A stretch of 64,000 nt of DNA from Candidatus Rifleibacteriota bacterium (lineage in GTDB: Bacteria; Muiribacteriota; Ozemobacteria; Ozemobacterales; Ozemobacteraceae). The translations under genes and the position numbers were made by a program. Where the stretch lies: contig JADFZL010000003.1 in assembly GCA_015232575.1 (NCBI GenBank), positions 128,001 to 192,000 on the forward strand, read 5' to 3'. The first letter of the stretch is position 1, and each line of letters begins with the position of its first letter. Positions 9 through 59,654 of this stretch are shown piece by piece. The notes under the pieces were generated by a model. It did no database searches, had not been told where the DNA came from, and saw only the letters and a list, made by a program, of their open reading frames with translations.

Positions 9-1289
9 GTGGTTTCGGTTGACACCAAACAACAGGATTCAGTTGATGTTGAAGCAAGTCTGAAAAAAGTTTCTGCTGAATCTGAAATGGTATCAAAAAA
101 TCGAACCATCTCTTCAGATGAAAAGGTTGTCAAAGAACTTGATTCAATAGCGGATACCAGTATTGAGAATAAAGCTAAGACTGAAAATTCACAGAGCGAT
201 TTAGAAAAGAACCTGCAGAACCTTCAGAAAGAGAATTCGGCTGAAAGTAACTCTGATAAAATTAACCTTTCAGAATTGAAATTAAATTCGGCTGAAAATA
301 ATCGTAATGATAAACGTGATGAAAACGCTAAAACTGACGCAACTGGAAAACAAATATCAGAAGTGAATTCAGAGTCGTCTGATGAAAGTTCTTCCAAAAA
401 AATAACTTCAGAAGTCACTTTCAATGATGAATCAGGAAACCAGCAGCCTAAGTTAAGCAAAAGTGAAAGACACCAGGAAAAGGTTAGTTCAGAGCATTTG
501 AATCAGGTTAATTTGTCGGCAAATACAGATCAGGTGAAGGCGAATCAGACTTCTTCCGTTACATTGGGTTTATTTCAGGGCGAATTAGCAAATACCGAAA
601 GCGAAATTTCATCTGAACTGACTCAAAAAGAGAGTTCCTCTCAGGTAAAATCTGAAAAGAGCGCTATTGAAAACAGTCTGAAAAACACGAAGATTCAGTT
701 TGAAGGCAAGCCATCAGATTTGAAAAACGGTCCAAATAATCAAAATGAATCATCTAACGGTCAGGGAAACATGAATTCTCAAACTTCATCGCTGAATGCC
801 TTAGGTGCTAAGCCTTCTGAAGGTGGAGATACTGTAAGGTCAGCAATAATGAATCAGATGATTGAAAAAATTCAGATGGTTCAGGATCTGCAAAATGTGA
901 AAACTCTTACCGTTAATTTGCGTCCCGAAATACTTGGAAAAGTTGATATACACCTTACATCCAGAGATGGGATAGTAAATGCAAGAATAGTTGCAGAAAG
1001 TGCCATGGTTAAAGAGCACCTGGAAGCGTTGGTTCCTCAGATTAAAAACACTCTGACTGATCAGGGTATTAATCTTAACAATATATCGGTGGATGTTTTT
1101 GCAAAACCTTCCGATGGTCGAAATAAGGGAAGTTTTTCGAAAAATCCGAATAAGGAACCCAGGCTCAGCGGTATCGGCGGAACAAAATTGGCCAGAAATA
1201 TACTGAAAACAGATGAACTTGAAAGTGGCCAGGAAAATGAGCTTGAGAAAACGGGTCAGACTAAAAAAGGAATAGATTTAAAAATCTAG
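9..1289 (+). CDS. fliK: flagellar hook-length control protein FliK (likely 5'-truncated by window edge)
   Basis: C-terminal Flg_hook-like segment (LTVNLRPEILGKVDIHLTSRDGIVNARIVAESAMVKEHLEALVPQIK); S/N/E/K-rich low-complexity N-region; sits directly upstream of flgD-flgE. Confidence 0.6.
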   Translation: MVSVDTKQQDSVDVEASLKKVSAESEMVSKNRTISSDEKVVKELDSIADTSIENKAKTENSQSDLEKNLQNLQKENSAESNSDKINLSELKLNSAENNRNDKRDENAKTDATGKQISEVNSESSDESSSKKITSEVTFNDESGNQQPKLSKSERHQEKVSSEHLNQVNLSANTDQVKANQTSSVTLGLFQGELANTESEISSELTQKESSSQVKSEKSAIENSLKNTKIQFEGKPSDLKNGPNNQNESSNGQGNMNSQTSSLNALGAKPSEGGDTVRSAIMNQMIEKIQMVQDLQNVKTLTVNLRPEILGKVDIHLTSRDGIVNARIVAESAMVKEHLEALVPQIKNTLTDQGINLNNISVDVFAKPSDGRNKGSFSKNPNKEPRLSGIGGTKLARNILKTDELESGQENELEKTGQTKKGIDLKI

Positions 1290-1299
1290 GAGGTAAAAA

Positions 1300-1713
1300 A
1301 TGGCACTTGAGATTACTGATGTAAAACCCCTGGGAACTTCTGGAGTCAAAGGAACACCTAAGCGTGAGCTTGATCAGGATGCCTTTTTGACATTGCTTAC
1401 AAAGCAACTTCAGAATCAGGATCCGATGAAACCGATGGATAATATGGATTTTGTCGGACAGATGGCACAGCTCTCCTCGCTTGATCAGACAGCCAAATTG
1501 AATACAAATATGACCAAACTTCTTAATCAGTCAGCTTCCAGCTATAAACTTCAGGCGATGTCTCTGCTGGGCAAAGCGGTTGTAGCACAGCCGGCCGGAA
1601 GTCCTGATCCGATTTCGAACAAGGTCGATTCGGTGATGTTCGAAGATGGCGAAGCGATATTCCAGGTTGGTGGTCAAGATCTGAAACTCGATGAAATTGT
1701 TATGGTGAGCTGA
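1300..1713 (+). CDS. flgD: flagellar hook assembly/capping protein FlgD
   Basis: FLTLLTKQLQNQDPMKPMDNMDFVGQMAQLSSLDQ is the classic FlgD N-terminal signature; AGGAGGT Shine-Dalgarno 6 nt upstream. Confidence 0.85.
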   Translation: MALEITDVKPLGTSGVKGTPKRELDQDAFLTLLTKQLQNQDPMKPMDNMDFVGQMAQLSSLDQTAKLNTNMTKLLNQSASSYKLQAMSLLGKAVVAQPAGSPDPISNKVDSVMFEDGEAIFQVGGQDLKLDEIVMVS

Positions 1714-1798
1714 TTAAACAGTTTAGTTTACTTACGAAAGGACGGTGATCAAGAAAAACAGATATTTCGGATTATGAATAATTTACAGGAAAAAATGA

Positions 1799-2203
1799 AT
1801 GATTACACGCCAGCTTATAAACCAGATTTCCGGGCAGGGTATTGTTTCCCGGGGCGAAAACAAAACTAATAAGAGTGCAGTCAATGCTTTAAATGGACAG
1901 ATTTTCGGAAATATACTGCAGAAATCTCTGGTTTCAAATCGCAGCGGGTTAAATATCAGTGCTCATGCAGACAAACGAATCGCAGAACGAAACATGGATT
2001 TTTCCAGTGATGTTCAAAAAGTATTAAATGATGCAGTGAATGAACTTCAGGCAAAGGGGGCAAAAGAGTCGCTGATACTGACAAAAGGTGGTGCTTTTCT
2101 TGTTAATGTTCCATCCAGAACACTTATTACAGCAATTACACCCGATGAGATGCACGACAAAATTATTACTCAGATTGACAGTGTAAGTATTAAAACCCAG
2201 TAA
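1799..2203 (+). CDS. small flagellar operon protein (TIGR02530-like, between flgD and flgE)
   Basis: 134 aa; position between flgD and flgE as in Firmicutes/Thermotogae; motif ISAHADKRIAERNMDFS resembles the H-A-x-x-R-L-x-E-R-N-I segment of that family (recollection, not searched). Confidence 0.4.
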   Translation: MITRQLINQISGQGIVSRGENKTNKSAVNALNGQIFGNILQKSLVSNRSGLNISAHADKRIAERNMDFSSDVQKVLNDAVNELQAKGAKESLILTKGGAFLVNVPSRTLITAITPDEMHDKIITQIDSVSIKTQ

Positions 2204-2597
2204 GAGTGACTGAAAAAAATGTCAGATGGCGATTACTAAAAAGAAATATATGAGAATAAGGCAAACAAAAAGTCCAGTGATTTACAACTGAAAAGTTCTT
2301 TAAAAAGTTATTCCATAAGGAGCAGACTAAGGTTCAATAGTTTCTCAAAGCGGAGGCAGACGATATTAAGGGCCGGACCCATAGAAAAGGGGAAGCCTGG
2401 ATCACCCGAACGACAGACGGTGATCACCTTGAGCAACTTTTTTGAACCAAAAAAGTTACGCTTTCAGGGGGAAACACATGATGTGCTTTTCCCCCTGGGG
2501 GTTTTCCGCTCGACCTGGACAGGTTGAGCCGGCATACGGTTTAAGGGAATAAACCGGAAGCCTGAAGGCGACTATGCCGCAAGGACAGGGTATCAAT

Positions 2598-5432
2598 ATG
2601 ATGAGATCTCTTTTCACAGGTGTTTCAGGCCTTAAGCAGCACCAGATTCGAATGGATGTGCTTGGAAACAATATAGCAAACGTTAACACACTGGCATTTA
2701 AAAAAGGTCGAGCTTTGTTTCAGGATCTTATGTCACAGACAGTGAGACATTCACAGCAATCAATGGGAAATATCGGTGGAACGAATCCTCAACAGATAGG
2801 ACTTGGAGTAAGGCTTGGCGCAATCGACACCCTCATGGATCAGGGCGCAATTGAAGGAACTGGTAAAAGTACTGACCTTGCTATTGAAGGTAACGGCTTT
2901 TTCGTAATAAAAAACGGATATGGCACCTACTCGTATACCCGTGATGGAAACCTTTCAGTTAACCCGAACTATGATTTAGTTGGAAGTAATACTGGTTTTA
3001 AAATGCAGGGTTGGCTTGCAACTCAGGATCAGGCGACAGGTGAACTCTCAATCAAACAGAATGCTGTAAATCCTTATGATTTGAATCTTACCAAATATCT
3101 GAAAAAAATGGCTCATAAGACCACAAATATCTCTTATGCCTCAAATCTTGACAGCTCTTCTGCTGAACGCGATGTAAAAATGGGCATGGAAAAGTTGGTT
3201 TTCAAAGATACCACCGGGGAATTTCAGAATCTCCAGGTTAAATTCAAAAAAATCGATGCACAGCATTGGGTCTGGAGTGCCACTGACGATACTGAAGGAA
3301 ACGTGGCAAACGGAAGCATTACCACAGATGCCGAAGGCAAAGTTATTGATACAACCGTTGAACCGATGGGTATTGGTGCAACAGTAGGAAAGCCTTACTT
3401 TACTTACGATCCTGATGGAACACCACTTCCGGCAACAGCAACAACTCTCATGAACAGCATGGGAAACACGGGTGATGGTTTTGCATCTGGAATTCAGGTC
3501 GATGGAACTGAGATCAAAGATGAAACAATAAAAGTAGTTTTTGACGGTGGTGATGCTGATCACGCAAATTCGTACCGTGTTGTCGGTTCAGAACGTGGAT
3601 TCATTGGTTCTGGCGTCATAGCCGGATCTCCAGCTAAGGCTGATGGCGTGGGAAACAAGCAGTTGGTTCTTGCAAACTGGACACCGGCAGCAACAGCATT
3701 CGATGTAGTTTTTCAGCGGGAAAGATATTCTGGTGATACTACTCCAGAGAACATTACAGCTACAATTCAATTCAATGCAGGACAACTGGTTGATGGAGTT
3801 GCAGAGACTAACAAATCGTTTACAACTTCAGCAATTATTGACAGAATGAATACTTCTTTAAAAGACAATGGTATACCGGCAACTGCATATTACGACTCTG
3901 TTCTTGGACAAATTTCAATATCAACAAATGCAACCGGAAGTAACCGCACCCTTCAGGTCTTAAATAGATCAGGACAGATTTCTGACCTGGGATTTACCCA
4001 GGATATTACAACTCAGGGAACTGGCATCTCTGCACCTGAGGCATGGGCTGAACTTCCAAATGAATTGAGTTCAAACCCATTTATCAGTTTCAATCCAACG
4101 TTTTCCTTCACAATTACCGACAAAGATGGAAGATCAGCTGCAGTAACATTTGATGCATCTGTTGGCGGCGTTGTTCAGACATACAATAAGAGTGATGTTC
4201 TGTCAAAAATTAATACTGCTCTGAGAAGTAACGATGTCAAGATTTCTGCTGAATTAATTGATTCCAACAATGATACTGAACCAGATCGCCTTGTACTTGT
4301 TGGGACCGACAAAGGTGCCGGAGAAAAAATTATTATATCAGGCGATCAGGCTACATTGCTTGCAAAACTTGGATTCAGGCCTAACACTGCTGCTGGTACA
4401 ACATTCCAGGCATATACCGGAACTCCAGGCGTTGCATCATTCAGTCAGGGCGGAGTTGACTTTACATTAACAGAAGGCAGTATACCCTGGAAGCCAAATG
4501 ATTCAATGGAAATGACCACAACCGCACAGAAGGGACAGGCTGAATCGGTTAACGTTTATGTTCCGACAGTCGATCAGGACACTCTTAATTTCAAAACTAC
4601 TGTTAATACACCACTTGGCCCTGAAACATTCACTATTACTGGTGCTGTCGAAAGAGGGGCAATTCATGACACAAGTATCAGAGTTTTTGATACACTTGGA
4701 AACGATCATGAGCTGGTCACTTCCTGGGAACATACTAATACTGAAACTAAAGAATGGGCTTATAAAATCACCTATTCTGAAGATGATCCCGAAATTACTG
4801 CCTGGCTCAAAGATCCTGCAAATGGTGTTGTTGATCCCGAAGATCCGACTGCAGATGATCTTGAACGTGCAAATGATGCATTGATTACCGAACGAAAAGG
4901 TACAATTTATTTTGGTACAAACGGAAAGATAGATCTTGGAAAATCAAATATTCCTGATATCCAATTTACTCCAAAGGGAAGCGATAAAATAAGTGTTTCT
5001 CTTGATATGGCACTTGCTACCCAGTATAGTTCAGCCTTTACAACCGCTGCCAGAGAGCAGGATGGTTATGAAATGGGAATGCTTGAGTCTGTAAGTTTTG
5101 AATCAGACGGAACAATCAGAGGTATTTATTCAAACGGACAAAAGCATCCAATCGGAAGAGTCGCACTTGCAACCTTTCAGAATTCATCGGGACTTGAAAA
5201 AACCGGAAAAAATCTTTACAATTCCTCTCCCAACTCCGGAACTCCTCTTATTGGTCAGGCGGGCTCTGGCGAACGCGGAACAGTGGTTCCTTCATCTCTC
5301 GAAATGAGCAATGTCGATATCGCGGAAGAATTCACGAACCTTATCATTACCCAGAGAGCATTCCAGGCTAACTCCAGAATTATTACCACATCAGACGAAA
5401 TTCTCCAGGAACTTGTAAACCTGAAACGTTAA
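2598..5432 (+). CDS. flgE: flagellar hook protein FlgE, giant variant (~944 aa)
   Basis: N-term MMRSLFTGVSGLKQHQIRMDVLGNNIANVNT and C-term NVDIAEEFTNLIITQRAFQANSRIITTSDEILQELVNLKR are canonical FlgE/FlgG rod-hook termini; a ~500-aa central insertion; ORF track start 2574, but MMRS at 2598 fits the family. Confidence 0.85.
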   Translation: MMRSLFTGVSGLKQHQIRMDVLGNNIANVNTLAFKKGRALFQDLMSQTVRHSQQSMGNIGGTNPQQIGLGVRLGAIDTLMDQGAIEGTGKSTDLAIEGNGFFVIKNGYGTYSYTRDGNLSVNPNYDLVGSNTGFKMQGWLATQDQATGELSIKQNAVNPYDLNLTKYLKKMAHKTTNISYASNLDSSSAERDVKMGMEKLVFKDTTGEFQNLQVKFKKIDAQHWVWSATDDTEGNVANGSITTDAEGKVIDTTVEPMGIGATVGKPYFTYDPDGTPLPATATTLMNSMGNTGDGFASGIQVDGTEIKDETIKVVFDGGDADHANSYRVVGSERGFIGSGVIAGSPAKADGVGNKQLVLANWTPAATAFDVVFQRERYSGDTTPENITATIQFNAGQLVDGVAETNKSFTTSAIIDRMNTSLKDNGIPATAYYDSVLGQISISTNATGSNRTLQVLNRSGQISDLGFTQDITTQGTGISAPEAWAELPNELSSNPFISFNPTFSFTITDKDGRSAAVTFDASVGGVVQTYNKSDVLSKINTALRSNDVKISAELIDSNNDTEPDRLVLVGTDKGAGEKIIISGDQATLLAKLGFRPNTAAGTTFQAYTGTPGVASFSQGGVDFTLTEGSIPWKPNDSMEMTTTAQKGQAESVNVYVPTVDQDTLNFKTTVNTPLGPETFTITGAVERGAIHDTSIRVFDTLGNDHELVTSWEHTNTETKEWAYKITYSEDDPEITAWLKDPANGVVDPEDPTADDLERANDALITERKGTIYFGTNGKIDLGKSNIPDIQFTPKGSDKISVSLDMALATQYSSAFTTAAREQDGYEMGMLESVSFESDGTIRGIYSNGQKHPIGRVALATFQNSSGLEKTGKNLYNSSPNSGTPLIGQAGSGERGTVVPSSLEMSNVDIAEEFTNLIITQRAFQANSRIITTSDEILQELVNLKR

Positions 5433-7466: not shown

Positions 7467-8458
7467 GAATTCTTTTCCTCCTGATCTTCTTCAAGTAAAT
7501 CATTTTTATCATCGCTCTCTTCGTTTGCCTCGAATTCGTCTTCTGAAAAGGACGTGCTTCCGCGGCGGTTAATATTATCAAGCGGGTCAAAAATTCTGTC
7601 ACCATATAGAAATATTATTTTGTAATCTGGCTGTTTTTTATTTATTTCCCGGATAATCATCTGCTTGACATCATCGACAGAGTATCTCAGAGAAAGGTGA
7701 AAAAGAAGAAGGTTTTTTACTCTTCCTTTTTGAGCTGTTTCCATAACTTCAGAAAGTATTGAATGCTGCTGAAAATTTCTTTCATCGTCGTCGGGGTGAA
7801 GATATGTGCTTTCATGGCAGAGAAGGAGACTGTCTTTGAACATGTTATGGTCTATCGGACGTGAATCTCCACCATACGTGAAAATTATCTGTTCAAAAGA
7901 TTCAGATACGTTGTCCTTGCCTGAACTCCATATTGCTTTATTTATTTCTTCCTGAGATTTTCCGACAAATTCTGCTTTCAATCTGCGTCTGAATTCGACT
8001 ATGTTATATCCCAGACTGAGCTGTTTATGAGAATGCATCGTTCGGAAAGTCTTGATAAAAGTCTTTCCACGCTTCTGGTCAAGTTCAATTTTTTCTTCAA
8101 CGTCAAGCGGTTTCCATTTCAAATTGAAAGAAAGTTCGCTCTGAGTAAGAGAAAGATAGTTCTGAACCCTTTCTATGAGAATATTGTTTTTTGGATAATA
8201 AATATCCAGGCCGGCCGTTTGGTCGCCAGCTCCGAGATTTCTTATGTTTACAAGGTTTACAAGTCCAGCTATGTGGTCAATATGTCCGTGTGATAAAAAT
8301 ATCTTTCTTATTCCAAATACCCTGTTAAGAAGGCTGGTAGCAACGCCTTCTCCAGCATCGAATAACAGATTGAAACGTCGAAGGTATATCCATGTAGAAA
8401 ACAGTGCCCGGGAAAACCCTTTAAAAGGTTCCTGCATTGGAAGAATTAATCGGCTCAT
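7463..8458 (-). CDS. metallo-beta-lactamase-fold hydrolase (RNase Z/ElaC-like) with acidic C-terminal tail
   Basis: HGHIDHIAGL (HxHxDH) motif; start corrected to the ATG overlapping the pilT stop (TGATG); its own stop overlaps the regulator start (ATGA); D/E-rich tail. Confidence 0.6.
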   Translation of the reverse strand: MSRLILPMQEPFKGFSRALFSTWIYLRRFNLLFDAGEGVATSLLNRVFGIRKIFLSHGHIDHIAGLVNLVNIRNLGAGDQTAGLDIYYPKNNILIERVQNYLSLTQSELSFNLKWKPLDVEEKIELDQKRGKTFIKTFRTMHSHKQLSLGYNIVEFRRRLKAEFVGKSQEEINKAIWSSGKDNVSESFEQIIFTYGGDSRPIDHNMFKDSLLLCHESTYLHPDDDERNFQQHSILSEVMETAQKGRVKNLLLFHLSLRYSVDDVKQMIIREINKKQPDYKIIFLYGDRIFDPLDNINRRGSTSFSEDEFEANEESDDKNDLLEEDQEEKNS

Positions 8459-9516
8459 CAGATTTCCTTGAAAGCAGTCGGATTTTTTACTTTGGATAGT
8501 GCAACATCGTAAGAGATTATTCCTTTTTGATATAAATCTTTGAGACATTTGTCCATTGATATCATTCCATGCTCTGAACCTGTTTGGATAAATGTATCAA
8601 TCTGACTCAGTTTGTTTTCTCTGATCAGCCTTCTTACTGCTGGTGTGGCAATCAGGATTTCATAAGCAAGAACACGACCTTTCTTCTCAACATTTGGAAG
8701 AAGTTGCTGACAGACAATTCCCTGAAGAGAACTTGCAAGCTGAACCCTTATCTGATCCTGTTGATGAGGCGGGAATACATCAACTATTCTGTCGATAGTC
8801 TGTTGGGAGTCATTTGTATGAAGAGTTGTAATTACAAGATGACCCGTTTCAGCAGCAGTTATTGCAGTAGAAATAGTCTCAAGATCGCGCATTTCTCCCA
8901 CTACAATGATATCGGGATCTTGTCTGAGAACATGTCTCAAAGCAATATTAAAACTGTGTGTATCTGAATAAACCTCCCGTTGAAGTATAACCGATTTCTT
9001 GTGCTGGTGCAAATATTCTATTGGGTCTTCGACAGTAATAATTCTGCAGCGCCGTTCCTGGTTGATCTGATCAACCATTGAATTAAGAGTCGTTGTTTTA
9101 CCCGAACCAGTCGGACCAGTGACAAGTACCAGACCGTTTGGCCTGCGAACAATTTCAAGAGCAGCTTCAGGCAGTCCGAGCTGAGTAATTGAAAGAACTT
9201 CTGGTGAGACAATTCTGAATGAAGCTTCGGTATAATTTCTTTCTTTAAATATGTTTACTCTGAATCGTCCAATTTCTTTGAGAGTAAATGAGAAGTCGAG
9301 TTCCCAGTCTTTTTCAAATTTTACTATCTGATCAGTATTTAATGCTGAGTAGACCAATGTCTGACAGGTTTCCTGATCAAGATTGTCGAAAGGCAGAGCA
9401 ATAATTTCGCCGTTAATTCTGGCCATTGGAGGTAATCCGACTGAAAGGTGCAGATCAGAAGCGTGTCGCTCCTGACAATGCTTTAATAATTTATCAAGAC
9501 TTAAAGTTAAAAACAT
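8458..9516 (-). CDS. pilT: type IV pilus retraction (twitching motility) ATPase PilT
   Basis: ASDLHLSVGLPP; Walker A GPTGSGKTTT; Walker B DIIVVGEMRD; His box TLHT; start taken at MFLTLSLDKLLK (internal Met of the longer ORF), with an AGGAAAAAG RBS upstream. Confidence 0.85.
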   Translation of the reverse strand: MFLTLSLDKLLKHCQERHASDLHLSVGLPPMARINGEIIALPFDNLDQETCQTLVYSALNTDQIVKFEKDWELDFSFTLKEIGRFRVNIFKERNYTEASFRIVSPEVLSITQLGLPEAALEIVRRPNGLVLVTGPTGSGKTTTLNSMVDQINQERRCRIITVEDPIEYLHQHKKSVILQREVYSDTHSFNIALRHVLRQDPDIIVVGEMRDLETISTAITAAETGHLVITTLHTNDSQQTIDRIVDVFPPHQQDQIRVQLASSLQGIVCQQLLPNVEKKGRVLAYEILIATPAVRRLIRENKLSQIDTFIQTGSEHGMISMDKCLKDLYQKGIISYDVALSKVKNPTAFKEI

Positions 9517-9575
9517 AATTATCTTTTTCCTGTATTTAAATTGAATAAGACTTATTTGAAAAAGCTTATTCGGTA

Positions 9576-10499
9576 TCAATTTTTAAGTAGGTTTTTAATT
9601 CTTTCTGGCGGCCATGCTATTTCATCAACACGCATTATATTAGAAATATTAATAGACAATGGCTTTCCATTAAAGAGAATACCTATTGAATCACTGGCTA
9701 TCTTAACAGGATCCTCTATTGATTTGAACGACTCAGCAACTTTTCCAGAAATTTTGATTTTGTTGTTCGTATGCATTATTGCAGTAATTGATTCATCTTC
9801 AAATGGAATTTTTCCATTGACAAAAAGTGTTTTGTCTTTTATTTGCATTAAATCATTTTCAACCGCACAAACTCTCTCTATATTATAATTCCAAATAACT
9901 ATGCTTCCGGGTTTTAGATCATTTTTTGCAGGATTATGCGTGATTAATATGGTATCGTAAGGTTGTATCAGCGGTGAATAATAATCAGCAAATATTCTCT
10001 CTGCACGACGGTTGCCGGTACCGAGGATTGTCAATATGTGCAGCTGAAAAAAAATTACCGTTACAAGCATTGCCGCAAATATAGGATAACTGATGAGGGA
10101 AAAAGCGCCTGCTTTCTTTAACGGCTGAGTATAGACATCAAAATATATAAAAAAGAGAAAGATTGCTGCGCCAATAAAAATATATTGGCTGAAAGGTGAA
10201 TATATATAATAATACCCATAAAATGCTGTAAATGCTGTAACTACGAGCGCTGACGCACCTTTAACCTTCTGGCCGAGCACAAGGTGTCCAAGTCCGGGGC
10301 ATAGAAAAGATAAAAATAGCACTTGCAGTGCTGTATTTCTTAAAGTATCGGGTATTTTGGATGTGACGGTATTAGAAGATAGTTTTTGAACGAAATTCTG
10401 CCACTTCAGCGAAATATTCGAAATAAAATTCCTATCCTTCTTTCGAGGCGGCTCAAAATCCATTACATCACTGTTTTTAGTGTTGCGAAAACCACACAA
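9576..10499 (-). CDS. membrane protein with C-terminal signal-peptidase-I-like (S26) domain; catalytic Lys position apparently Glu
   Basis: ~5 predicted TM helices, then YSPLIQPYDTILI (cf. SMxPTLxxGD) and NIERVCAVENDLMQIKDKTLFVNGK (cf. YIKRVIGLPGDTVEIKDG.LYINGK) and a C-terminal WPP; TTG start per the ORF track, with an internal ATG 12 codons in. Confidence 0.3.
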   Translation of the reverse strand: MCGFRNTKNSDVMDFEPPRKKDRNFISNISLKWQNFVQKLSSNTVTSKIPDTLRNTALQVLFLSFLCPGLGHLVLGQKVKGASALVVTAFTAFYGYYYIYSPFSQYIFIGAAIFLFFIYFDVYTQPLKKAGAFSLISYPIFAAMLVTVIFFQLHILTILGTGNRRAERIFADYYSPLIQPYDTILITHNPAKNDLKPGSIVIWNYNIERVCAVENDLMQIKDKTLFVNGKIPFEDESITAIMHTNNKIKISGKVAESFKSIEDPVKIASDSIGILFNGKPLSINISNIMRVDEIAWPPERIKNLLKN

Positions 10500-10730
10500 C
10501 GGGCATAACAGTGTGTCTGAACGAATTACATTACCGCATTTTGTACAATTAATACTTGTTCGCCACCTTTCTTCACCGGATGTATTAAAACAAGGTCATT
10601 TTTTAATTTAATGGTATAGGAATTTTCATTTTAGTTATGCGTGCTTCCTAAAATCATAATATGAATTCAAACTGTCTTGTAACGATTTCAGATTCATTGT
10701 TTTCCAGGGTGCATTACCGTATTTTATGCT

Positions 10731-10796
10731 GTCATTTCGACCGAAGGTAGAAATCTCGTCTTTTCTATTTGATCTCTCCCTTCGGTCGAGATGACA
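10731..10796. repeat. palindromic intergenic repeat, family 1, copy A (~66 bp imperfect hairpin)
   Basis: gtcatttcgaccgaaggtagaaatctcg...gatctctcccttcggtcgagatgaca; related copies at 33155-33218, 45515-45579 and 57497-57545. Confidence 0.8.
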
Positions 10797-10863
10797 ATAA
10801 ATAGTCCGCCCGGAGGGCGTTAATTTAACAGCCAGTAGAGTTGATAATTTAATAGATTATTTG

Positions 10864-11064
10864 TCAATATTTTGTTTTTACAGTATTGTCAATTGTTACC
10901 GGGTTATAATATTCACTCGAAAACTTTTTTTCCTTAACTTTTCCGCTTAAGAGCTCCTGAAACATTTTCATATAATCATCGCAGGCCTTTCCGAAGCCTT
11001 CCAGCGTGATATTTACCTGCCCATCAGGAGCTATTGTAACTTGTATTTCTTCCTTCTTTGGCAT
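10864..11064 (-). CDS. small DUF2997-like protein
   Basis: MPKKEEIQVTIAPDGQVNITLEGFGKACDDY resembles the DUF2997 pattern (M..i.i.i..dG.v.i...G..G..C); this family typically partners DUF1257 and a Ycf46-like AAA ATPase. Confidence 0.35.
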   Translation of the reverse strand: MPKKEEIQVTIAPDGQVNITLEGFGKACDDYMKMFQELLSGKVKEKKFSSEYYNPVTIDNTVKTKY

Positions 11065-11128
11065 ATCGTTCTCCTTTAACTCTTTCAGTTTAATTGTTTT
11101 CTAACCTTCGGTTTAGAAATGTTCATAA

Positions 11129-11935
11129 TCATTTGACAAAAAGACCCTTGACCCAACTGAAAACTTTTGAAAAAAGACTCTTGTTTATTGCTCTGCAATA
11201 AGCATCATTATATTTTTTATTTACCGGCGCAAGTTTGTTTGCGCGTGAAAAAGATTCTTCGGCGGCAGAATGCAGGTTTAGTCTGTTCTGAATAACACCA
11301 AGCAGATAATATATTTCTGGTAAATCCGATTTTTTTGACAGAGCTTTCTGTAAGACCGGAATTGCTTTCTCGAATAATGGGGTGTTACTGTAACTCTGGG
11401 CAATTTTAAAGAATACCAGCCAGTCGTTTGGCAACAATTCAATTGCTTTCATCATGCAGAATTCGGCATTATTGCCTTTCGTAAGTGCAATAATTTCACC
11501 TCTTGCGATCCATGAAAACCATGAAACATTATCATTTTTCATTGCTCCATCAGAAAAAGCCATGGCATCTTTGAGATTAGCATCTCTTGCTGATGCAAGT
11601 GCCCTTGCTGAAATAATATTCGCGCTTTTTGGAAATAACTTATTTGCTTTTATTGACCAGGTAAGTGCTTCAGGAATTTCTTCAAGATCAAGAAGGCAGA
11701 GAAGCTGTCCAAACCAGGCTTCCTCAATATTTGGATCTATTCCAAGAACTTTTGAATAGTATTTCAAAGCTCTTTCATATTCAAGTTTCCGGTAGTTCTC
11801 ATCTGCAAGACGTAGAACATGCCCGGGATTTGTTAAATCAACTCCGGCCGTTTCAGAATTTCCAGGAAGCTTGTCAAATCCATCTGTTTTCCTGTTTTCC
11901 GGAGAATCAAATTCCAGCCACTTGAATCTGCTCAA
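11129..11935 (-). CDS. TPR-repeat protein
   Basis: multiple TPR-like helical repeats (ALKYYSKVLGIDPNIEEAWFGQ...). Confidence 0.5.
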   Translation of the reverse strand: MSRFKWLEFDSPENRKTDGFDKLPGNSETAGVDLTNPGHVLRLADENYRKLEYERALKYYSKVLGIDPNIEEAWFGQLLCLLDLEEIPEALTWSIKANKLFPKSANIISARALASARDANLKDAMAFSDGAMKNDNVSWFSWIARGEIIALTKGNNAEFCMMKAIELLPNDWLVFFKIAQSYSNTPLFEKAIPVLQKALSKKSDLPEIYYLLGVIQNRLNLHSAAEESFSRANKLAPVNKKYNDAYCRAINKSLFSKVFSWVKGLFVK

Positions 11936-12013
11936 ACTTTTTCACCTGCCATTCGATCTATAACATTCATATCCTGATCAAAAAATCCAAATCCAAAATC
12001 ACAAATCTTTTGA

Positions 12014-12129
12014 CACTGTAGCAACGTTACTGAAGAAAAGATATATCTCACGCAGAGATGCAGAGGCACAGAGAAAAGCAGAGGGAAAATCGTGTTATTT
12101 TTATATCTGCTTAGCAACATTGCTACAAT
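12014..12129. mobile_element. MITE-like element, family 3, copy 1 (terminal inverted repeats CACTGTAGCAACGTTACTGA / TAGCAACATTGCTACA)
   Basis: shares termini and the internal ATATCTCACGCAGAGA core with 59562-59654; no coding capacity. Confidence 0.65.
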
Positions 12130-12210
12130 CTCAATCTCTTATCCCTTATCTTACAATCTTAAATCTTACAATCCAAAATCTTACAATCCAAAATCTCTTA
12201 ATCTTGAAGC
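12130..12210. repeat. short tandem repeat (ATCTTACAATCC, period ~15, 3-4 units)
   Basis: atcttacaatcttaa / atcttacaatccaaa / atcttacaatccaaa read directly. Confidence 0.6.
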
Positions 12211-12270
12211 TTGAAAATCTGCGTAATCTGCGGACAAAAATCTTTTCTCGTCTCGTCTTTTCTTTTAATC

Positions 12271-12723
12271 CTATTTCCAGCGGCTTACCGTAAGCCGAAT
12301 TGTTTTATCCTCAGAAACTTCTTCTTTTGTAACCGCAAAGCCTTTTCTTTTCATTTCGGCTGTAATTTTCTGGTAAGCATACTGTTGGGCTATTCCATTG
12401 AGAAGATTCTTTCCGAGGAATTCAAGTTCAGCCTCACTTTTATTTACCCCATTGACCCGCATTTGGCAGTCACCTCTGCCCGTCTTTTCAAATACAACTG
12501 AAAAGCCGTTTCCCTGAAAACAAACACTTTCGCCCTCATCAATTGTGTCTGCCAGAGCGTAATTCGAAGACAATGGAATCTCAGCTTCGCATTCCGAATT
12601 GACCTCAGTCATTTGATCACTGCCGACACGACTCATTCCATAGGCTATTCCGGCGACCGTTGCAGCAGCAACAAAGGCGGGCCAGCCGACTATTACCGGC
12701 ACCATAACTACAAATCCTGACAT
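12271..12723 (-). CDS. DUF1257-like (Ycf35-like) protein with N-terminal TM helix
   Basis: C-terminal LLNGIAQQYAYQKITAEMKRKGFAVTKEEVSEDKTIRLTVSRW resembles the conserved DUF1257 C-terminus (recollection); adjacent to the AAA ATPase. Confidence 0.35.
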   Translation of the reverse strand: MSGFVVMVPVIVGWPAFVAAATVAGIAYGMSRVGSDQMTEVNSECEAEIPLSSNYALADTIDEGESVCFQGNGFSVVFEKTGRGDCQMRVNGVNKSEAELEFLGKNLLNGIAQQYAYQKITAEMKRKGFAVTKEEVSEDKTIRLTVSRWK

Positions 12724-12735
12724 AGTATCCTCCTT

Positions 12736-14367
12736 TTATATCTCAAGTGCACGATGAGTGCCAATACGCTGAAAACCGTGCTGTCCAGCTGATGCAGGTC
12801 TTGCTCTTTCCATTGCCCAGTTTCTCAATTCATCAATTTCTTCTTTCATTGTTTTTGAAAGAGGGAATGTTTCTTCGAGAGCGCTTATTATATATTCGGA
12901 ATTCAGTTCATTGCCCGAATTGAAAGCTTCGTAAAGAGCAGACGATATCGCCTCTTCAATTTCTGAGCCAGAAAAGCCCTCAGAAGCCTTTGCAAGGTCT
13001 TCCATATTGAAATTTCCCGGGTTTCTGCTTTTCTTTTTTATATGAATTTCAAAAATCTTTTTTCTTTCTTCAGAATTTGGAAGGTCAACAAAGAAAATGT
13101 CATCAAATCTTCCTTTTCTGAATAACTCAGGTGGCAAATCTTTTATTCTGTTCGAGGTAGCAATTACAAAAACCGGAGAAGTTTTTTCCTGAAGCCAGGT
13201 AATAAATGTTCCAAAAACACGGCTTCCGACGCCACTGTCGCCCTGACCACCTGACTGCATGCCAGAAAAGGCTTTCTCGATTTCATCTATCCAGAGTATT
13301 GCCGGAGCTACTGATTCAGCTGTTTTTATTGCACGTCTTACATTTTCTTCACTTGAACCGACCAGACTTGAAAAAATTCGCCCCATGTCAAGTTTTAGAA
13401 GCGGAACATTCCAGAGACTGCTTATTGCCTTGGCTACAAGACTTTTGCCACATCCCTGTACACCCAGAAGTAATATTCCCTTTGGCGGAGTGCATCCGAA
13501 GGCTCTGGCCTTTTCGGAAAAAGCATGAGATCGCTTCAGCAGCCAGTCTTTAAGGTTTTCAAGACCGCCAACATTGCTTATTGCTTCTGTTGTTGGATAA
13601 TATTCAAGAATGCCGCTTTTTTTGATTATCTGTTCTTTTTCGCTGTGTATGGCCTTTAGATCTTCTCCGTCCAGACGTCGCCTGGAGATCAAAGTTCTGG
13701 CGAGAACATTTTCAATCTCATTTAGAGTCAGACCCTGACAGGCTTTTGCAAGTTTTTCAAGCTCAATTGGATTAAGGTTTATTTTTACCTGAGGATTATT
13801 TTTTACAAGACCTATCATTTCATCAATCTTATTTGATACTTCGGCAGGTGTCGGGAAACCGAATTCAGCTACTGTTATTTCTTTTTCCAGTTCGCAGGGA
13901 ATTTTAAGTATTGGTGAAATAATTATAAGCGTTCTTGGACTATCCCTCAAAAATGAGGCCAATTCACGCATTCTTCGTATAATTGATACGTTGTCAAGAT
14001 ATGGGTGGTAATCCTTAAAAATATAAATGGCATTTTCAAGACTTTCGAATATTCCTTCGATAGCTTCCTGTGGGTCGCGTGTTGATTGCGATATATTCTT
14101 TTTGCTCTGAAAGTCTGTTCCGTAAGGAAGCAATCCACGGGTGATTGACCATGTATAACATTTCTTGTTCTGAGCCCTCGATAATTGGAAAATAAGTTTT
14201 TCGATTCTCTCTTCTTCATGAGAAACAATGTAAAGAATTGGATACTTGGCTCTTATGAGAACATCAATATTTGAATAAAATCCGGAATTCATTACCGGTT
14301 CTTTTTCAGGTAATGGGGTTGGATTTTGATTTGGTTTACTTTTTGTTGGATTGCTTTCTGCGGACAT
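12736..14367 (-). CDS. AAA+ family ATPase, Ycf46-like (single C-terminal AAA domain)
   Basis: Walker A GVQGCGKSL; Walker B ILWIDEIEKAF; sensor/arginine region ATSNRIKDLPPELFRKGRFD; ~280-aa N-terminal domain. Confidence 0.8.
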   Translation of the reverse strand: MSAESNPTKSKPNQNPTPLPEKEPVMNSGFYSNIDVLIRAKYPILYIVSHEEERIEKLIFQLSRAQNKKCYTWSITRGLLPYGTDFQSKKNISQSTRDPQEAIEGIFESLENAIYIFKDYHPYLDNVSIIRRMRELASFLRDSPRTLIIISPILKIPCELEKEITVAEFGFPTPAEVSNKIDEMIGLVKNNPQVKINLNPIELEKLAKACQGLTLNEIENVLARTLISRRRLDGEDLKAIHSEKEQIIKKSGILEYYPTTEAISNVGGLENLKDWLLKRSHAFSEKARAFGCTPPKGILLLGVQGCGKSLVAKAISSLWNVPLLKLDMGRIFSSLVGSSEENVRRAIKTAESVAPAILWIDEIEKAFSGMQSGGQGDSGVGSRVFGTFITWLQEKTSPVFVIATSNRIKDLPPELFRKGRFDDIFFVDLPNSEERKKIFEIHIKKKSRNPGNFNMEDLAKASEGFSGSEIEEAISSALYEAFNSGNELNSEYIISALEETFPLSKTMKEEIDELRNWAMERARPASAGQHGFQRIGTHRALEI

Positions 14368-14472
14368 CGGCTTTCCTCATTTCCATTGTGTTTACTCTAT
14401 ATACATTCTAACTTTTTTACTGATAAAAAGTAAAGTTGAGTTTTGCATATTTTAAATCTCAAAAATATTCCC

Positions 14473-14505
14473 AAAAAAAAACCCCCGGATTTTGAAAACC
14501 GGGGG
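14473..14505 (-). terminator. rho-independent terminator (CCCCCGG...CCGGGGG followed by a T9 run on the minus strand)
   Basis: aaaaaaaaacccccggattttgaaaaccggggg; lies ~230 nt downstream of the 14737-15342 gene. Confidence 0.7.
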
Positions 14506-14736
14506 CAAAGTGAGAGGATCTTTTGAGAGGAATCGGTACCTCACGGAAACCGCGAGGTAAATATAGCAATACTTCAAATGAATACGTAAATCTCGAATAA
14601 ATTCGAGGTATTCACGAAGTAAAATTTCAAAGACCGATGTAATTATATAAGCAATTTGCGTGCCAACATAAAACAACCATTTTCAGCCATTTCCAATAGT
14701 GTAAAAAAAATGCACACGTGCAAAAAATGCACGCGA

Positions 14737-15342
14737 TTATATGACCGACAAAGGAACTGAAAGCAGTGATGACAAACGCTTTCCAAGTAGTTCGAGCTTT
14801 TTTAACTCACTTGTACCAGATGAATTGATTGGAATAATTTCGCCTTTAACTGTTTCCAGAGAAAGAATGAAATAATCGTTCTTCCCAGAGATAATAAGCT
14901 TTTTAATGCTTTTTATGTATAATACAAGTCTTGCATTTGTTTTGATATATCCTTTAAAGCCGCATATATCGTTTATTATTATCTGGTCATCAGCGGGGTT
15001 ATATTCAATAACAGGGTAAAATCCGTAATGAATCATCATTGGAATAACAAGTTCTTTCAGGAAATACCTTATAAAAAAGAAAATAAGGAGCATTGATACA
15101 CCAAAAACAATCAATACCGGTGTTGCGGTTTTGTTCTGATGCAGGAAGAAAATGGTTGCAAGTGTTGGAATTCCACAACAAATCAAGAGAATCAGTTCTG
15201 TTGATTTGCTGATAGAATGGTCTGTCAGTGGAATCTTCTGAGAAATCTTTGCCAGCAGTTCTTTATTCAAAAGAATTTTCCTGTGTAGTTTTAAGTATCT
15301 TCCCAATAATTCAGGGCAACTGCATTTTTTATTCATCTGCAT
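14737..15342 (-). CDS. hypothetical membrane protein
   Basis: two or three hydrophobic helices; no recognisable motifs. Confidence 0.4.
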   Translation of the reverse strand: MQMNKKCSCPELLGRYLKLHRKILLNKELLAKISQKIPLTDHSISKSTELILLICCGIPTLATIFFLHQNKTATPVLIVFGVSMLLIFFFIRYFLKELVIPMMIHYGFYPVIEYNPADDQIIINDICGFKGYIKTNARLVLYIKSIKKLIISGKNDYFILSLETVKGEIIPINSSGTSELKKLELLGKRLSSLLSVPLSVI

Positions 15343-15544: not shown

Positions 15545-17404
15545 ATGACAGCAGATGTAATATTGATCGGTTTGAATACCAGGCACACTCATTGTAGTCT
15601 ATCCCTGGCCTTGTTGCAGGCTTTCTGGGAAAAAGATCCTTCGAATCCGAGAATAGAACGAATTGATTTTGATTTGAATCAGGGAAACGATTCGATTATT
15701 CAGAATATTGTTCTGAAAAAGCCCCGGTTGCTTGGTTTTTCTGTATATATATGGAATCTTATTTCCGCTGCAGCAATAAGCGGTTCAGTTAAAGCAGCTC
15801 TTCCTGATGTTAAAATTATTTTTGGAGGTCCGGAAGTCTCATTTGATTCAGAAAGAATTTTTTCATTGGCTCCCTGGGTTGACCTCATAGTCAACGGGGA
15901 AGGGGAAGAAACTTTTTCTGAGATACTTTCTTCTTTTTTTGCAGATAAGTCAATGTTTGATGGAATTGCAGGTACTTCAGTTTTCAGAAATGGACAGTTG
16001 ATACAAAATCCTCAAAGGAAGCTTATTTCGGACCTTGATTCTTTACCTTCAGCATTTTCGGCTGGATATTATGGAACAGGAAAAGGTTTTACGTATTACG
16101 AAGCCTCACGTGGATGTCCTTTTAAATGTGCATATTGTTTAAGTTCAGTATTGGGTCCGGTAAGGAATTTTTCACTTCAGAGAGTTAAAGACGATCTTGA
16201 CTGGTTTTTCCAGTCAGATTATTCTCAGGTTCGTTTTGCTGATCGGACATTCAATCTTGATAATCAAAGAGCTGAGAATATTGTCAAATACATTCTCGAG
16301 AAAAATTATAAAAAAATCTGTTTCCATTTTGAGTTGAAACCGGAAATTCTTACTGATTCATTTATCGAATTGCTTGGACATGCAGACCCCGGTTTATTTC
16401 ATCTCGAAATCGGTGTTCAGAGCACCAATCCCGAATCACTTGAAGCTGTATCAAGAAAAAGTGATCCTCAGAAACTGGCAGAAAGAATTCAATGTTTGAG
16501 AGACAGAACAAAGTGCCATGTTCATCTGGATTTACTTGCCGGTTTGCCGGGTGAAAATTTTGAACTTTTCAAAAAAACTTTAAATGATGCACATTCCTGG
16601 AAAGTTAGTACTATTCAGGTTGGATTAGTAAAAGTGTTAAAGGGAACTGCACTTGAAAATTCTGTAAGGGATGGATCACTTTCTGTTGCGCCTTTTCCGC
16701 CGTATTCCGTTCAGAGGAGTAAATGGCTCACTTCAGAGGAAATAATTCGAATTCAGGATATCGGAAAGCTGGTTGAAGGTATTGGAAACTCTGAAAGGTA
16801 TAATTTAAGTCTGAATTTTATCTGTAATTTCCTTTTCAAATCTGACTGGGCTGAATTTTATGATTCTCTTGCGTTTTTCTGGAGAAAAACCGGAAAGCAG
16901 TTTTTTGCACTGAGTCCGGAAAATATTAAAAAGGCATTGAGTGAACATCTCAGTGAGGTGTCAAAAGATTCTGACATTACTTGTGCCGCCGATTCGCTTT
17001 TAACACATGAATTGCGTTTAATTCAGAAAGTTCCGGCAGGAAAAGCCGGACCAGTGCCGATTGTTCCTAATCTTTCCGGCCGTCCGCTTGTGAAAAAAAC
17101 GAATGGTTATAAAACATTCTGGTACAATGTTGATGTTCAGGAACTAATAGAATGTAACAAAATAGCAATTTTACCATCTCCAGTTGTTTATCACTACCAG
17201 ACAGATCTTTCGCTTCCTCCTGACAGCAGTATGTATTTTCTTCCGATTGAGGATCGTTTTTTAATGGCACTTGCAGATCAGGTTGATACTGTTGATACCA
17301 TTTGTGAGATCTGGAATCAGCAGAAACGCGCATCCAGAAGTTCTGATTTTTTTCTAAACTCTCTGGACAAACTTATTGAAAAAGGTTTACTATCTAAGCG
17401 ATAG
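15545..17404 (+). CDS. B12-binding domain radical SAM protein (DUF4080-type)
   Basis: N-terminal B12-binding Rossmann segment; CPFKCAYC (Cx3Cx2C) radical SAM cluster motif; ~620 aa, typical of the family. Confidence 0.85.
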   Translation: MTADVILIGLNTRHTHCSLSLALLQAFWEKDPSNPRIERIDFDLNQGNDSIIQNIVLKKPRLLGFSVYIWNLISAAAISGSVKAALPDVKIIFGGPEVSFDSERIFSLAPWVDLIVNGEGEETFSEILSSFFADKSMFDGIAGTSVFRNGQLIQNPQRKLISDLDSLPSAFSAGYYGTGKGFTYYEASRGCPFKCAYCLSSVLGPVRNFSLQRVKDDLDWFFQSDYSQVRFADRTFNLDNQRAENIVKYILEKNYKKICFHFELKPEILTDSFIELLGHADPGLFHLEIGVQSTNPESLEAVSRKSDPQKLAERIQCLRDRTKCHVHLDLLAGLPGENFELFKKTLNDAHSWKVSTIQVGLVKVLKGTALENSVRDGSLSVAPFPPYSVQRSKWLTSEEIIRIQDIGKLVEGIGNSERYNLSLNFICNFLFKSDWAEFYDSLAFFWRKTGKQFFALSPENIKKALSEHLSEVSKDSDITCAADSLLTHELRLIQKVPAGKAGPVPIVPNLSGRPLVKKTNGYKTFWYNVDVQELIECNKIAILPSPVVYHYQTDLSLPPDSSMYFLPIEDRFLMALADQVDTVDTICEIWNQQKRASRSSDFFLNSLDKLIEKGLLSKR

Positions 17405-33055: not shown

Positions 33056-33154
33056 AATATATTAACCCTCACCCTTGCCCTTCGCATGCGTTAACTTAAA
33101 GTAGGCAAAATCTTAAATAATGAGACAAACTTTTTATTAACTTTGTGGTAGATT

Positions 33155-33218
33155 GTCATCTCGAGCGAATGTGAGATATCTCAATAATGCGAGCTTTCTT
33201 CCTTCGGTCGAAATGACA
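33155..33218. repeat. palindromic intergenic repeat, family 1, copy B
   Basis: gtcatctcgagcgaatgtgagatatctc...gagctttcttccttcggtcgaaatgaca. Confidence 0.8.
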
Positions 33219-45333: not shown

Positions 45334-45514
45334 ATTTTGTTAAAGCCAAGCTTATATCGTATAATCGTATCTACTCAATTTTTACTCAATATTGTATTAG
45401 AAATCTCTTTTTTTGTCCAATGCAAAAACTTTTTTTTATCGTCAATGCCAATGAGCTTAGTACGCAAAACCTTATATAAGGGGGCATATTTGCGTGTTAA
45501 CTATTATGTGAGCT

Positions 45515-45579
45515 GTCATCTCGAACGAATGTGAGAGATCTCCGCAAGTGCGAGATTTCTCCCTTCGGTCGAAATGACA
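45515..45579. repeat. palindromic intergenic repeat, family 1, copy C
   Basis: gtcatctcgaacgaatgtgagagatctc...gagatttctcccttcggtcgaaatgaca. Confidence 0.8.
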
Positions 45580-59465: not shown

Positions 59466-59561
59466 TCATTTGAATCCTGAAAATCAATTACCTCAAAATT
59501 GCCGATAATTATAACATCCAATGATATTTAATGCAACGTTTTTCAGCCAGTAAAAAAAGGG

Positions 59562-59654
59562 CACTGTAGCAATGTTGCTGAAAAATGAATATATCTCACG
59601 CAGAGACGCTCGTATTTTTTTTAATTGTATCTGCTCAGCAACATTGCTACAGTG
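59562..59654. mobile_element. MITE-like element, family 3, copy 2 (20-bp perfect terminal inverted repeats CACTGTAGCAATGTTGCTGA / TCAGCAACATTGCTACAGTG)
   Basis: read directly; internal AATATATCTCACGCAGAGACGCTCG core shared with 12014-12129. Confidence 0.7.

Follow-up and report, generated by a model that had tools for sequence, protein, structure and literature searches.

How far does an operon built around an AAA+ ATPase and two protein families of long-unknown function extend, and what might its products do together? The question is raised by a stretch of 64,000 nucleotides (hereafter the window) from a Candidatus Rifleibacteriota bacterium (assembly GCA_015232575.1, contig JADFZL010000003.1, positions 128,001 to 192,000 of the forward strand), in which an earlier note, made from the letters alone, had singled out four genes, for an AAA+ ATPase, a DUF1257-like protein, a TPR (tetratricopeptide repeat) protein and a DUF2997-like protein. 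All four open reading frames (ORFs) lie on the minus strand where they had been placed, but the unit does not end at 10864 as that note had it: the genes for an S26-like (signal peptidase-like) membrane protein and a PilT-family ATPase are also conserved members. Positions 8458..14367 (minus strand) hold one conserved operon of six genes, a statement of gene content that is well supported, encoding the AAA ATPase, a transmembrane (TM)-anchored DUF1257 protein, the TPR protein, DUF2997, a zinc-ribbon pseudo-signal-peptidase membrane protein and the PilT-family ATPase. The operon may encode a membrane-anchored, signal-regulated protein-remodelling machine, a tentative proposal to which we would give slightly less than an even chance and for which we infer all protein contacts, the client and the direction of work.

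Conservation of the six-gene operon

The neighbourhoods of AAA homologues in another Riflebacteria metagenome-assembled genome (MAG), one further contig of 3.8 Mb, Gimesia, a JGI metagenome contig (also present as GCA_964645405.1) and a contig binned as Jordarchaeaceae were found to hold the same partners together with two extra genes, for a membrane protein of about 325 amino acids (aa) and a T2SSE/PilT ATPase. For a wider set, a profile of the AAA N-domain was run against one genome per GTDB species, where more than 460 species loci were matched and the best 80 taken; hidden Markov models (HMMs) were built for each family from the fetched loci. Gene order was counted in a well-flanked set of 42 non-duplicate loci from other species, whose relevant flanks extended for 5.5 kb or more.

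Of these 42 loci, 30 (mostly of Planctomycetota and Verrucomicrobiota) have genes of all six families pointing the same way. The order AAA, DUF1257, DUF2997, S26-like, TPR, PilT is followed by 24 of these complete loci, while three exchange the positions of S26-like and DUF2997, and another three place TPR between DUF1257 and DUF2997 in a window-like arrangement, among them the locus L002, in which AAA stands at the end of the cluster. A reduced form, AAA, TPR and PilT, occurs in four of the 42 (with more in the full set), and AAA stands alone in five. Median intergenic gaps run from -24 to +50 bp, and the order is shuffled between phyla with the linkage retained. Because this linkage outlasts rearrangement across phyla, with genes that overlap or nearly abut, the evidence for a functional operon is strong; chance adjacency was rejected on the conservation counts over dozens of species of different phyla.

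The TPR gene, which had been described as inserted into the module, is instead a constant operon member, found in about 60 loci, with a position that depends on lineage. Riflebacteria, Omnitrophota, the Acidobacteriota-labelled locus L045, L002 and L003 have it between DUF1257 and DUF2997; in Planctomycetota and Verrucomicrobiota it follows the membrane protein gene. In most loci it overlaps the start of the PilT gene (median gap -4 bp), the two being linked in 32 loci.

Co-directional adjacency of AAA, DUF1257 and DUF2997 also recurs in unrelated genomes, namely in about 55-60 loci of the Planctomycetota-Verrucomicrobiota-Chlamydiota (PVC) type, on phage contigs and on plasmids, which bears out the statement in the earlier note that a Ycf46-like AAA/DUF1257/DUF2997 trio co-occurs widely. 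The six-gene operon is, with good support, the elaborated chromosomal form of a far wider uncharacterised module, itself equally well supported, that comprises an AAA with a pseudo-AAA N-domain and DUF2997, with or without DUF1257 and with or without an NrdG-like radical SAM enzyme. The open-access literature was found to hold no description of the operon, nor of a function for the AAA/DUF1257/DUF2997 trio. The features of the window are collected in Table 1.

One locus stands apart by its label. L003 (GCA_038824995.1, JAWBPK010000073.1, 7.2 kb) carries a bacterial-type operon within a bin named 'Candidatus Jordarchaeaceae archaeon' (Asgard); its AAA is 58% identical to that of the window and its gene order is as in Riflebacteria. 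Its occurrence there is probably due to mis-binning, or possibly to horizontal transfer.

Table 1. Features of the operon and its surroundings, in coordinates of the window.
Feature	Position	Strand	Details
PilT/PilU-family hexameric ATPase	8458..9579	-	ORF; ATG 9516 likely start, giving 352 aa, as in L001
Zinc-ribbon/PPR/polytopic membrane protein with inactive S26-like C-terminal domain	9576..10553	-	about 325 aa from ATT 10553 (probable start)
Palindromic intergenic repeat	10730-10796		67 nt; spacer between DUF2997 and membrane protein genes; 26-nt arms, 88% complementary
DUF2997 protein	10864..11064	-	66 aa
Cytoplasmic TPR protein	11129..11935	-	268 aa; several TPR Pfam families
Hairpin (MITE-like) repeat	12012-12134		about 120 nt; spacer between DUF1257 and TPR genes; 22-nt terminal inverted repeats
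TM-anchored DUF1257-like protein	12271..12723	-	150 aa; start 12 bp past AAA stop
AAA+ ATPase	12736..14367	-	543 aa; 518 aa if M26 start; degenerate D1, active classic-clade D2, C-terminal helix
Pseudo-AAA (D1-like) N-terminal module	13582..14292	-	residues 26-262; without Walker A or B
Sigma-54 promoter TTGGCACgcaaaTTGCt and short structured transcript with strong terminator	14470..14666	-	directly upstream of operon
REP-like palindrome family (TGTCATYTCGANCGAAKG ... CCTTCGGTCGARATGACA)	5793, 10730-10796, 33154-33218, 45514-45579, 57495		about 67 nt

The AAA+ ATPase

The AAA protein matches PF00004 (100.9 bits) and AAA_lid_3 (PF17862, 34 bits) in Pfam, and with its Walker A (GVQGCGKS at 302), Walker B (ILWIDE at 357), second region of homology with arginine fingers (TSNR..RKGRFD at 404) and AAA lid it belongs to the classic clade. 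The best sequence matches of this D2 module are to the D2 of p97. The N-terminal module is a degenerate AAA fold whose best structural matches are Vps4, AFG2, TRIP13, spastin and Cdc48. Sequence and profile searches of the PDB with the N-domain gave no significant match. The ATPase is a two-module protein with a dead D1; where a 543-aa protein with a single C-terminal AAA module and an N-domain of about 280 aa had been described, the ORF and the active C-terminal module stand, but the N-domain is itself a degenerate AAA module. The NCBI model of an identical protein (100%, from a Candidatus Riflebacteria MAG) has 518 aa and begins at M26; the earlier ATG at 14367, with a ribosome-binding site, GAGGAAAG, directly upstream, may also be the start.

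Homologues in other phyla are 52-60% identical, and the N-domain family comprises 3559 clusters at 50% identity (E up to 1e-3). Some homologues are filed by JGI under the broad COG name 'SpoVK/Ycf46/Vps4'. This name and the occurrence of relatives in Sericytochromatia point towards Ycf46, for which the libraries searched gave no specific model or reference sequence. None of the distant N-domain relatives carries the Ycf46 label. Among the closest known parallels are classic-clade AAA+ remodellers with one inactive ring or module (Vps4, Cdc48/p97, AFG2, Pex1/Pex6 and NSF), which likewise have tandem AAA-fold modules of which one is catalytic and a second region of homology with arginine fingers. 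The window protein differs from the Vps4/Cdc48-type remodellers in that its D1 lacks Walker A and B altogether, its pore loop reads Leu-Val-Gly, it has no MIT, N-D1-type or other known substrate-recognition domain, and its partners, in place of ESCRT-III or ubiquitin adaptors, are DUF1257 and DUF2997.

The DUF1257-like and DUF2997 proteins

That the C-terminus of the 150-aa protein resembles DUF1257 was borne out by a PF06868 match of 37.2 bits (E = 3.7e-9, cut-off 22.2), which covers only positions 59-103 of the 103-position profile, at residues 101-145; the identical protein is named 'DUF1257 domain-containing' by NCBI. A whole-domain match is not obtained for the window protein, whereas phage homologues match the profile from 1 to 103, and most operon-linked relatives have no precomputed PF06868 match. 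From these profiles and the predicted helix described below, the operon DUF1257 is a divergent, TM-anchored subfamily. Residues 5-23 are hydrophobic by hydropathy, and the AlphaFold2 model has a helix at 14-27. The earlier note had taken the N-terminal TM helix as a gain in this genome; it is instead family-wide, present in every operon-linked DUF1257 member, with P9 invariant, W14 near-invariant and G29 conserved, and also in a homologue on a Bacillus cereus plasmid.

The 66-aa protein is a DUF2997 protein as proposed, matching PF11211 over the full profile (1-47 of 47) at 42.3 bits against a cut-off of 24.1, and it also matches phrog_23133. Its family invariants are E6, I11, G15, G25, C28 and E51, followed by a SEYYEP-like tail; hydropathy gives no TM segment, and no signal-peptide-like N-terminus was seen. 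PDB sequence and profile searches with DUF1257 and DUF2997 returned nothing significant, and a profile-profile comparison of DUF2997 with part of DUF1257 gave a weak match in the expected register (16% probability). In the Gimesia locus L004, a 78-aa ORF at 7768-8004, between the radical SAM and AAA genes, has a DUF2997-like hairpin motif, ELEILPDGRICVFG, and may be a second, divergent protein of the DUF2997 type.

The S26-like membrane protein

The canonical ORF of the S26-like protein starts at TTG 10499 and gives 307 aa, cutting the zinc ribbon (CTKC...CPLC) that is kept in homologues. An upstream in-frame INCTKCGNVIRSDTLLCPLCG restores the ribbon and is preceded by a Shine-Dalgarno sequence, AAAGGTGG, with ATT 9 nt after it; this non-canonical ATT at 10553 is probably the start. 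Most family members carry a zinc ribbon at the N-terminus, together with an invariant Pro-Pro-Arg motif and three to four hydrophobic segments; the N-terminus with its ribbon is positively charged and cytoplasm-like.

A relationship to the S26 fold is supported because 14 of 21 family members match PF10502 (Peptidase_S26), and the family keeps the GD.V and RV..PGD boxes of signal peptidase I (S26) and of LexA/UmuD-type S24 proteins. The window protein nevertheless is not a signal peptidase I: its TIGR02227 score of 22.6 bits lies below the cut-off of 47 and there is no Ser/Lys dyad. The position of the catalytic Lys is occupied by Glu in the window (IERV) and by E, D, N or S across the family, and Ser is not conserved, for which reasons the domain is read as a pseudo-peptidase. 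In further contrast to signal peptidase I, it is fused to the zinc ribbon, the invariant PPR and three or four TM segments, and probably serves as a binding or sensor domain.

The TPR protein and the PilT-family ATPase

The TPR protein shows neither a TM segment by hydropathy nor a signal-peptide-like N-terminus. The ATPase encoded last in the operon is, by profile and motif, a true member of the PilT/PilU family: it scores 465.8 bits against TIGR01420 (cut-off 319.1), is matched by PilT chains in the PDB at 1e-108 to 1e-96 (best 2.6e-108), and has intact Walker A and Walker B motifs, intact Asp and His boxes and an intact AIRNLIRE-type motif, AVRRLIRE. It resembles type IVa PilT/PilU in passing the family model and in holding all catalytic and PilT-specific motifs, but differs from type IVa pilus systems in having no linked pilus assembly genes or pilins, and in being translationally coupled to a TPR gene alongside an AAA+ unfoldase. 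We know of no such arrangement in the described pilus systems. A regular expression for the prepilin cleavage motif found none in the 64-kb window and one nearby in only four of 84 non-duplicate loci; a conventional type IV pilus locus is not supported, no linked pilin (sought by this expression) or assembly gene having been found in the loci and the window.

A second PilT-like gene is present in the window at 41831-44635 (+). It encodes a 934-aa protein of unusual architecture in which HEAT repeats (around residues 200-260) are fused to a PilT/T2SSE ATPase domain (629-818), scoring 400 bits against the HMM of the operon PilT.

Regulation and linked accessory genes

The promoter directly upstream of the operon, TTGGCAC-N5-TTGC, is an exact match to the -24/-12 consensus pattern that was searched for. 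It is followed by a structured transcript of about 130-170 nt (minimum free energy -60.2 kcal/mol, z = -6.9), whose 3' block, UCCUCUCAAAAGAUCCUCUCACUUUG, contains two anti-Shine-Dalgarno-like CCUCUC motifs ahead of the strong terminator. The layout, the conserved 3' block (TCCTCTCAAAAGATCCTCTCACTTTG) and the hairpin are also found in the Riflebacteria locus L001 (7673-7845, +). Rfam has no family for the element, which is common to two Riflebacteria genera and is a possible regulatory small RNA or leader. An NtrC-type sigma-54 activator is encoded downstream of PilT and RNase Z in both Riflebacteria loci.

Linked accessory genes were found by all-against-all clustering of ORFs across the loci. 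A small radical SAM gene (PF04055 with Fer4_12), with best hits of the NrdG2/PflA type, lies directly upstream of AAA in 53 of the 84 loci, and in 38 loci, mostly of Verrucomicrobiota, it is itself preceded by genes for an extracytoplasmic function (ECF) sigma factor and a conserved 78-aa protein. Neither the Fer4_12 radical SAM gene nor the ECF sigma gene is present anywhere in the 64-kb window. With ECF sigma factors in Verrucomicrobiota and sigma-54 in Riflebacteria, the operon adjoins alternative-sigma elements in two lineages. The 78-aa protein, encoded after the ECF sigma factor (L020, L037, L051 and about 35 more Verrucomicrobiota loci), has a Q/E-rich N-terminus, a core of the form REFxSAEEMLRYDA..T.VPP.IA.RL and a WW[KR]RLF tail; neither Pfam nor NCBIfam gives a match, and the protein may be an unusual small anti-sigma factor.

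The flanks of the window operon and of L001 are syntenic and include housekeeping genes (RNase Z, NtrC and flagellar genes among them), and at the other loci they are ordinary genes of metabolism and transport.

The module on phages and plasmids and in cyanobacteria

PHROG families exist for AAA, DUF1257 and DUF2997, each listed as of 'unknown function', and the full-length AAA matches phrog_8638 at 524 bits. Among 27 IMG/VR contigs with a related AAA, DUF2997 lies within a few kb in 15, mostly downstream, a canonical full-length DUF1257 is present in 12 and an NrdG-like radical SAM gene in nine; adjacency of AAA, DUF1257 and DUF2997 was seen on the phage contigs L088, L090, L092, L093, L098 and L103-L107. 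Cluster O mycobacteriophages carry the AAA, but neither DUF1257 nor DUF2997 was detected in them. A separate phage form of the module, with five genes, was noticed on L093, L098 and L105-L107, where a RecA-like protein of about 246 aa (PF00154, E = 8e-8) is encoded between AAA and DUF2997, followed by the NrdG-like radical SAM enzyme and a canonical DUF1257.

Plasmid copies vary in their company. A Treponema plasmid has Fer4_12 then AAA adjoining a baseplate gene, and a Geminocystis plasmid has DUF1257 then DUF2997, with AAA further on, in a defence-like context of an RloB/ATP-binding pair, a zeta toxin and DUF4007. On the B. cereus plasmid the order is radical SAM, TM-DUF1257-like, TM protein, AAA and DUF2997; because both a TM-anchored DUF1257-like protein and a TM protein are present there, the membrane theme reaches beyond the PVC group.

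In cyanobacteria, DUF2997 and ycf35 (DUF1257) are clustered with the 4Fe-4S ferredoxin gene fed7 (PMC4284462). Both ycf35 and ycf46 are absent from most freshwater red-algal plastids and tend to be lost together (PMC5940233), and the ycf46 operon of S. elongatus is stress-induced (bioRxiv 10.1101/2025.07.21.665879), in parallel with the sigma-factor control of the present operon. The cyanobacterial and plastid cluster is alike in having the same two DUF families adjacent, but in the window a TM helix anchors DUF1257, whose profile match is confined to the C-terminal half, the operon includes the AAA gene and lacks a ferredoxin, and three further proteins (S26-like, TPR and PilT) are added. With Ycf46 the likeness lies in an AAA partner, some homologues of which bear the broad name 'SpoVK/Ycf46/Vps4', a comparison by name only.

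A proposed mechanism and its alternatives

In the proposed remodelling machine, a platform in the cytoplasmic membrane would be formed by the DUF1257 protein, with its single TM pass, and the polytopic S26-like protein, and the soluble DUF2997 would pair with the DUF1257 domain. The TPR protein would act as an adaptor; its possible ligands are the acidic-aromatic DUF2997 tail and the invariant PPR peptide beside the zinc ribbon. The platform would receive two hexameric motors, the PilT-type ATPase and a Vps4/Cdc48-like unfoldase in which the D1 ring is inactive and the D2 ring active. Through ATP hydrolysis some protein assembly associated with the membrane would be extracted, taken apart or reset. 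The client may be the DUF1257-DUF2997 complex itself or a protein presented by that complex, and the trigger may lie in envelope or other stress signals.

Several observations weigh against this proposal. The pore loop of the AAA, S-L-V-G, is near-invariant in the family alignment and carries no aromatic residue, in place of the aromatic-hydrophobic-Gly pore loop 1 typical of processive unfoldases; it may point to a remodeller and not to a processive unfoldase. The S26-like protein may have three or four TM segments, of which the charge distribution favours three, with the S26-like domain predicted to lie outside the membrane. The radical SAM partner that is common elsewhere is missing from the window, and any model that needs it cannot apply there unchanged. 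Phages and plasmids carry the simpler core, and for these versions at least a conflict role would fit. To our knowledge, moreover, every characterised PilT or PilU acts on type IV pili, which favours a pilus-centred explanation.

According to that explanation, the operon would be an accessory or regulatory module of a type IV filament machine. The PilT paralogue, targeted or regulated by the TPR protein, would pull back a pilus or pseudopilus, and retracted pilins would be recycled or degraded in the inner membrane by the AAA ATPase together with the membrane proteins. PilT is indeed the sole component with a precise family assignment (TIGR01420 at 465.8 against 319.1, and AVRRLIRE), its gene overlaps that of the TPR protein in most loci, the reduced AAA, TPR and PilT form persists in four of the 42 well-flanked loci, and TPR proteins such as SgmX regulate pilus ATPases (NCBIfam description). 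Yet no pilin, PilB/C/M-Q or secretin genes are linked, prepilin motifs are as scarce as described above (none in the window, and nearby in 4/84 loci), PilT is absent from the phage and plasmid core, and PilT paralogues of unknown role are common in bacteria; the explanation is, in our judgement, unlikely. A conflict system is to our minds distinctly unlikely. Here the operon would serve anti-phage defence or abortive infection (counter-defence in phages); AAA would sense or regulate, and the effectors would be the membrane proteins. The AAA module matches the PADLOC model IetA (91 bits), TRIP13 models and the NCBIfam model IteA, but only the generic AAA module is covered, IteA (NF042959) scores 77 bits against a cut-off of 510, and the other five proteins match no defence model except for the TPR protein, which has one match at E = 0.01. 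Membership of IetAS was rejected on that score and on the lack of any partner match; although the AAA module aligns, there is no IetS-type protease partner and the context is not a defence island. The presence of the AAA and DUF2997 core (with or without DUF1257 and radical SAM) on IMG/VR contigs, in PHROGs and on plasmids, the Geminocystis copy beside its RloB/ATP-binding pair, zeta toxin and DUF4007, and a type I restriction-modification gene 3.5 kb from the Gimesia operon all speak for conflict, whereas the identity of the AAA across phyla (52-60%), the syntenic housekeeping flanks of the window and L001 and the metabolic and transport flanks elsewhere speak against it. ECF-sigma control is unusual for defence systems, which counts in the same direction. 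The association with defence islands for which the earlier note proposed a test is absent in the window and fails for this locus, one cyanobacterial plasmid copy of the trio being in a defence-like context; the phage and plasmid core copies remain a lead.

Maturation by a radical SAM enzyme was also considered, in which the NrdG-like enzyme would modify or activate DUF2997 or DUF1257 (for instance by way of a cross-link, or of a glycyl or Cys-centred radical), the AAA would unfold or present the substrate and the other proteins would export or use the product. The frequency of the PF04055 and Fer4_12 gene directly upstream of AAA (53/84 loci, with NrdG2/PflA-like best hits), the recurrence of the same enzyme type with AAA and DUF2997 on phage contigs and on Treponema and Bacillus plasmids, the invariant Gly residues and single invariant Cys of DUF2997, and the clustering of cyanobacterial DUF2997 and ycf35 with the 4Fe-4S ferredoxin Fed7 (PMC4284462) would all accord with such a role. 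The enzyme family is, however, absent from the 64-kb window and from other complete operons, for example L006, and is for that reason dispensable for, or separable from, the six-gene unit; furthermore, the small proteins show no evident glycyl-radical motif, a SPASM domain is lacking, and all NCBIfam scores fall far below their cut-offs. We regard this explanation as very unlikely.

A bolder form of the remodelling proposal may also be entertained, although we consider it somewhat unlikely: that the PilT-type motor and the dead-D1 AAA+ unfoldase work jointly on the DUF1257/pseudo-signal-peptidase membrane platform as an undescribed envelope machine, switched on by ECF-sigma or sigma-54, and that this represents a new class of system that uses ATP for the extraction, remodelling or export of membrane proteins. 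We know of no described system that pairs a PilT-family motor with an AAA+ unfoldase. If true, such an envelope machine would be common in Planctomycetota and Verrucomicrobiota, and its ancient core (AAA, DUF1257, DUF2997 and the NrdG-like radical SAM enzyme) would be shared with large phages and plasmids. The conserved operon joins the two kinds of ATPase in two large and poorly studied phyla, and DUF1257 and DUF2997, long without a known role in cyanobacteria, plastids, bacteria and phages, are now the partners of a specific two-module AAA+ ATPase, in a context that in one branch is placed on the membrane and is testable. Cultured carriers exist (Gimesia aquarii), and the linkage to ECF sigma in Verrucomicrobiota suggests inducing conditions.

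Repeat elements and neighbouring genes

Both repeats reported in the earlier note, a MITE-like (miniature inverted-repeat transposable element-like) element and a palindrome, are present in the spacers of the operon. An arm of the palindrome occurs eight times in the window against 0.07 expected, and all copies of this REP-like (repetitive extragenic palindromic) family are intergenic. The hairpin element has a second copy at about 59560-59650, the copy in the operon carrying a 28-nt AGAGG-rich insert, and beyond it, at 12141-12215, stand four to five 15-nt tandem repeats (ATCYNAAATCTTACA). The spacers that bear the repeats are long, at 335 bp (hairpin) and about 310 bp (palindrome), against a few bases to about 50 bp in other genomes.

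Upstream of the operon, 14737-15342 (-) encodes a 201-aa protein with two TM segments that has a comparable 188-aa protein at the corresponding place in L001, and 15545-17404 (+) encodes, divergently, a B12-binding radical SAM protein that is not of the operon-linked Fer4_12 type and whose similarly placed counterpart in L001 matches PF02310, PF04055 and DUF4080. At the start of the window, flagellar genes occupy 9-5432 (+), including those for a FliK-like protein and an unusually large FlgE-type hook protein of 952 aa; a similarly large hook gene (978 aa) is present in L001 together with flbD.

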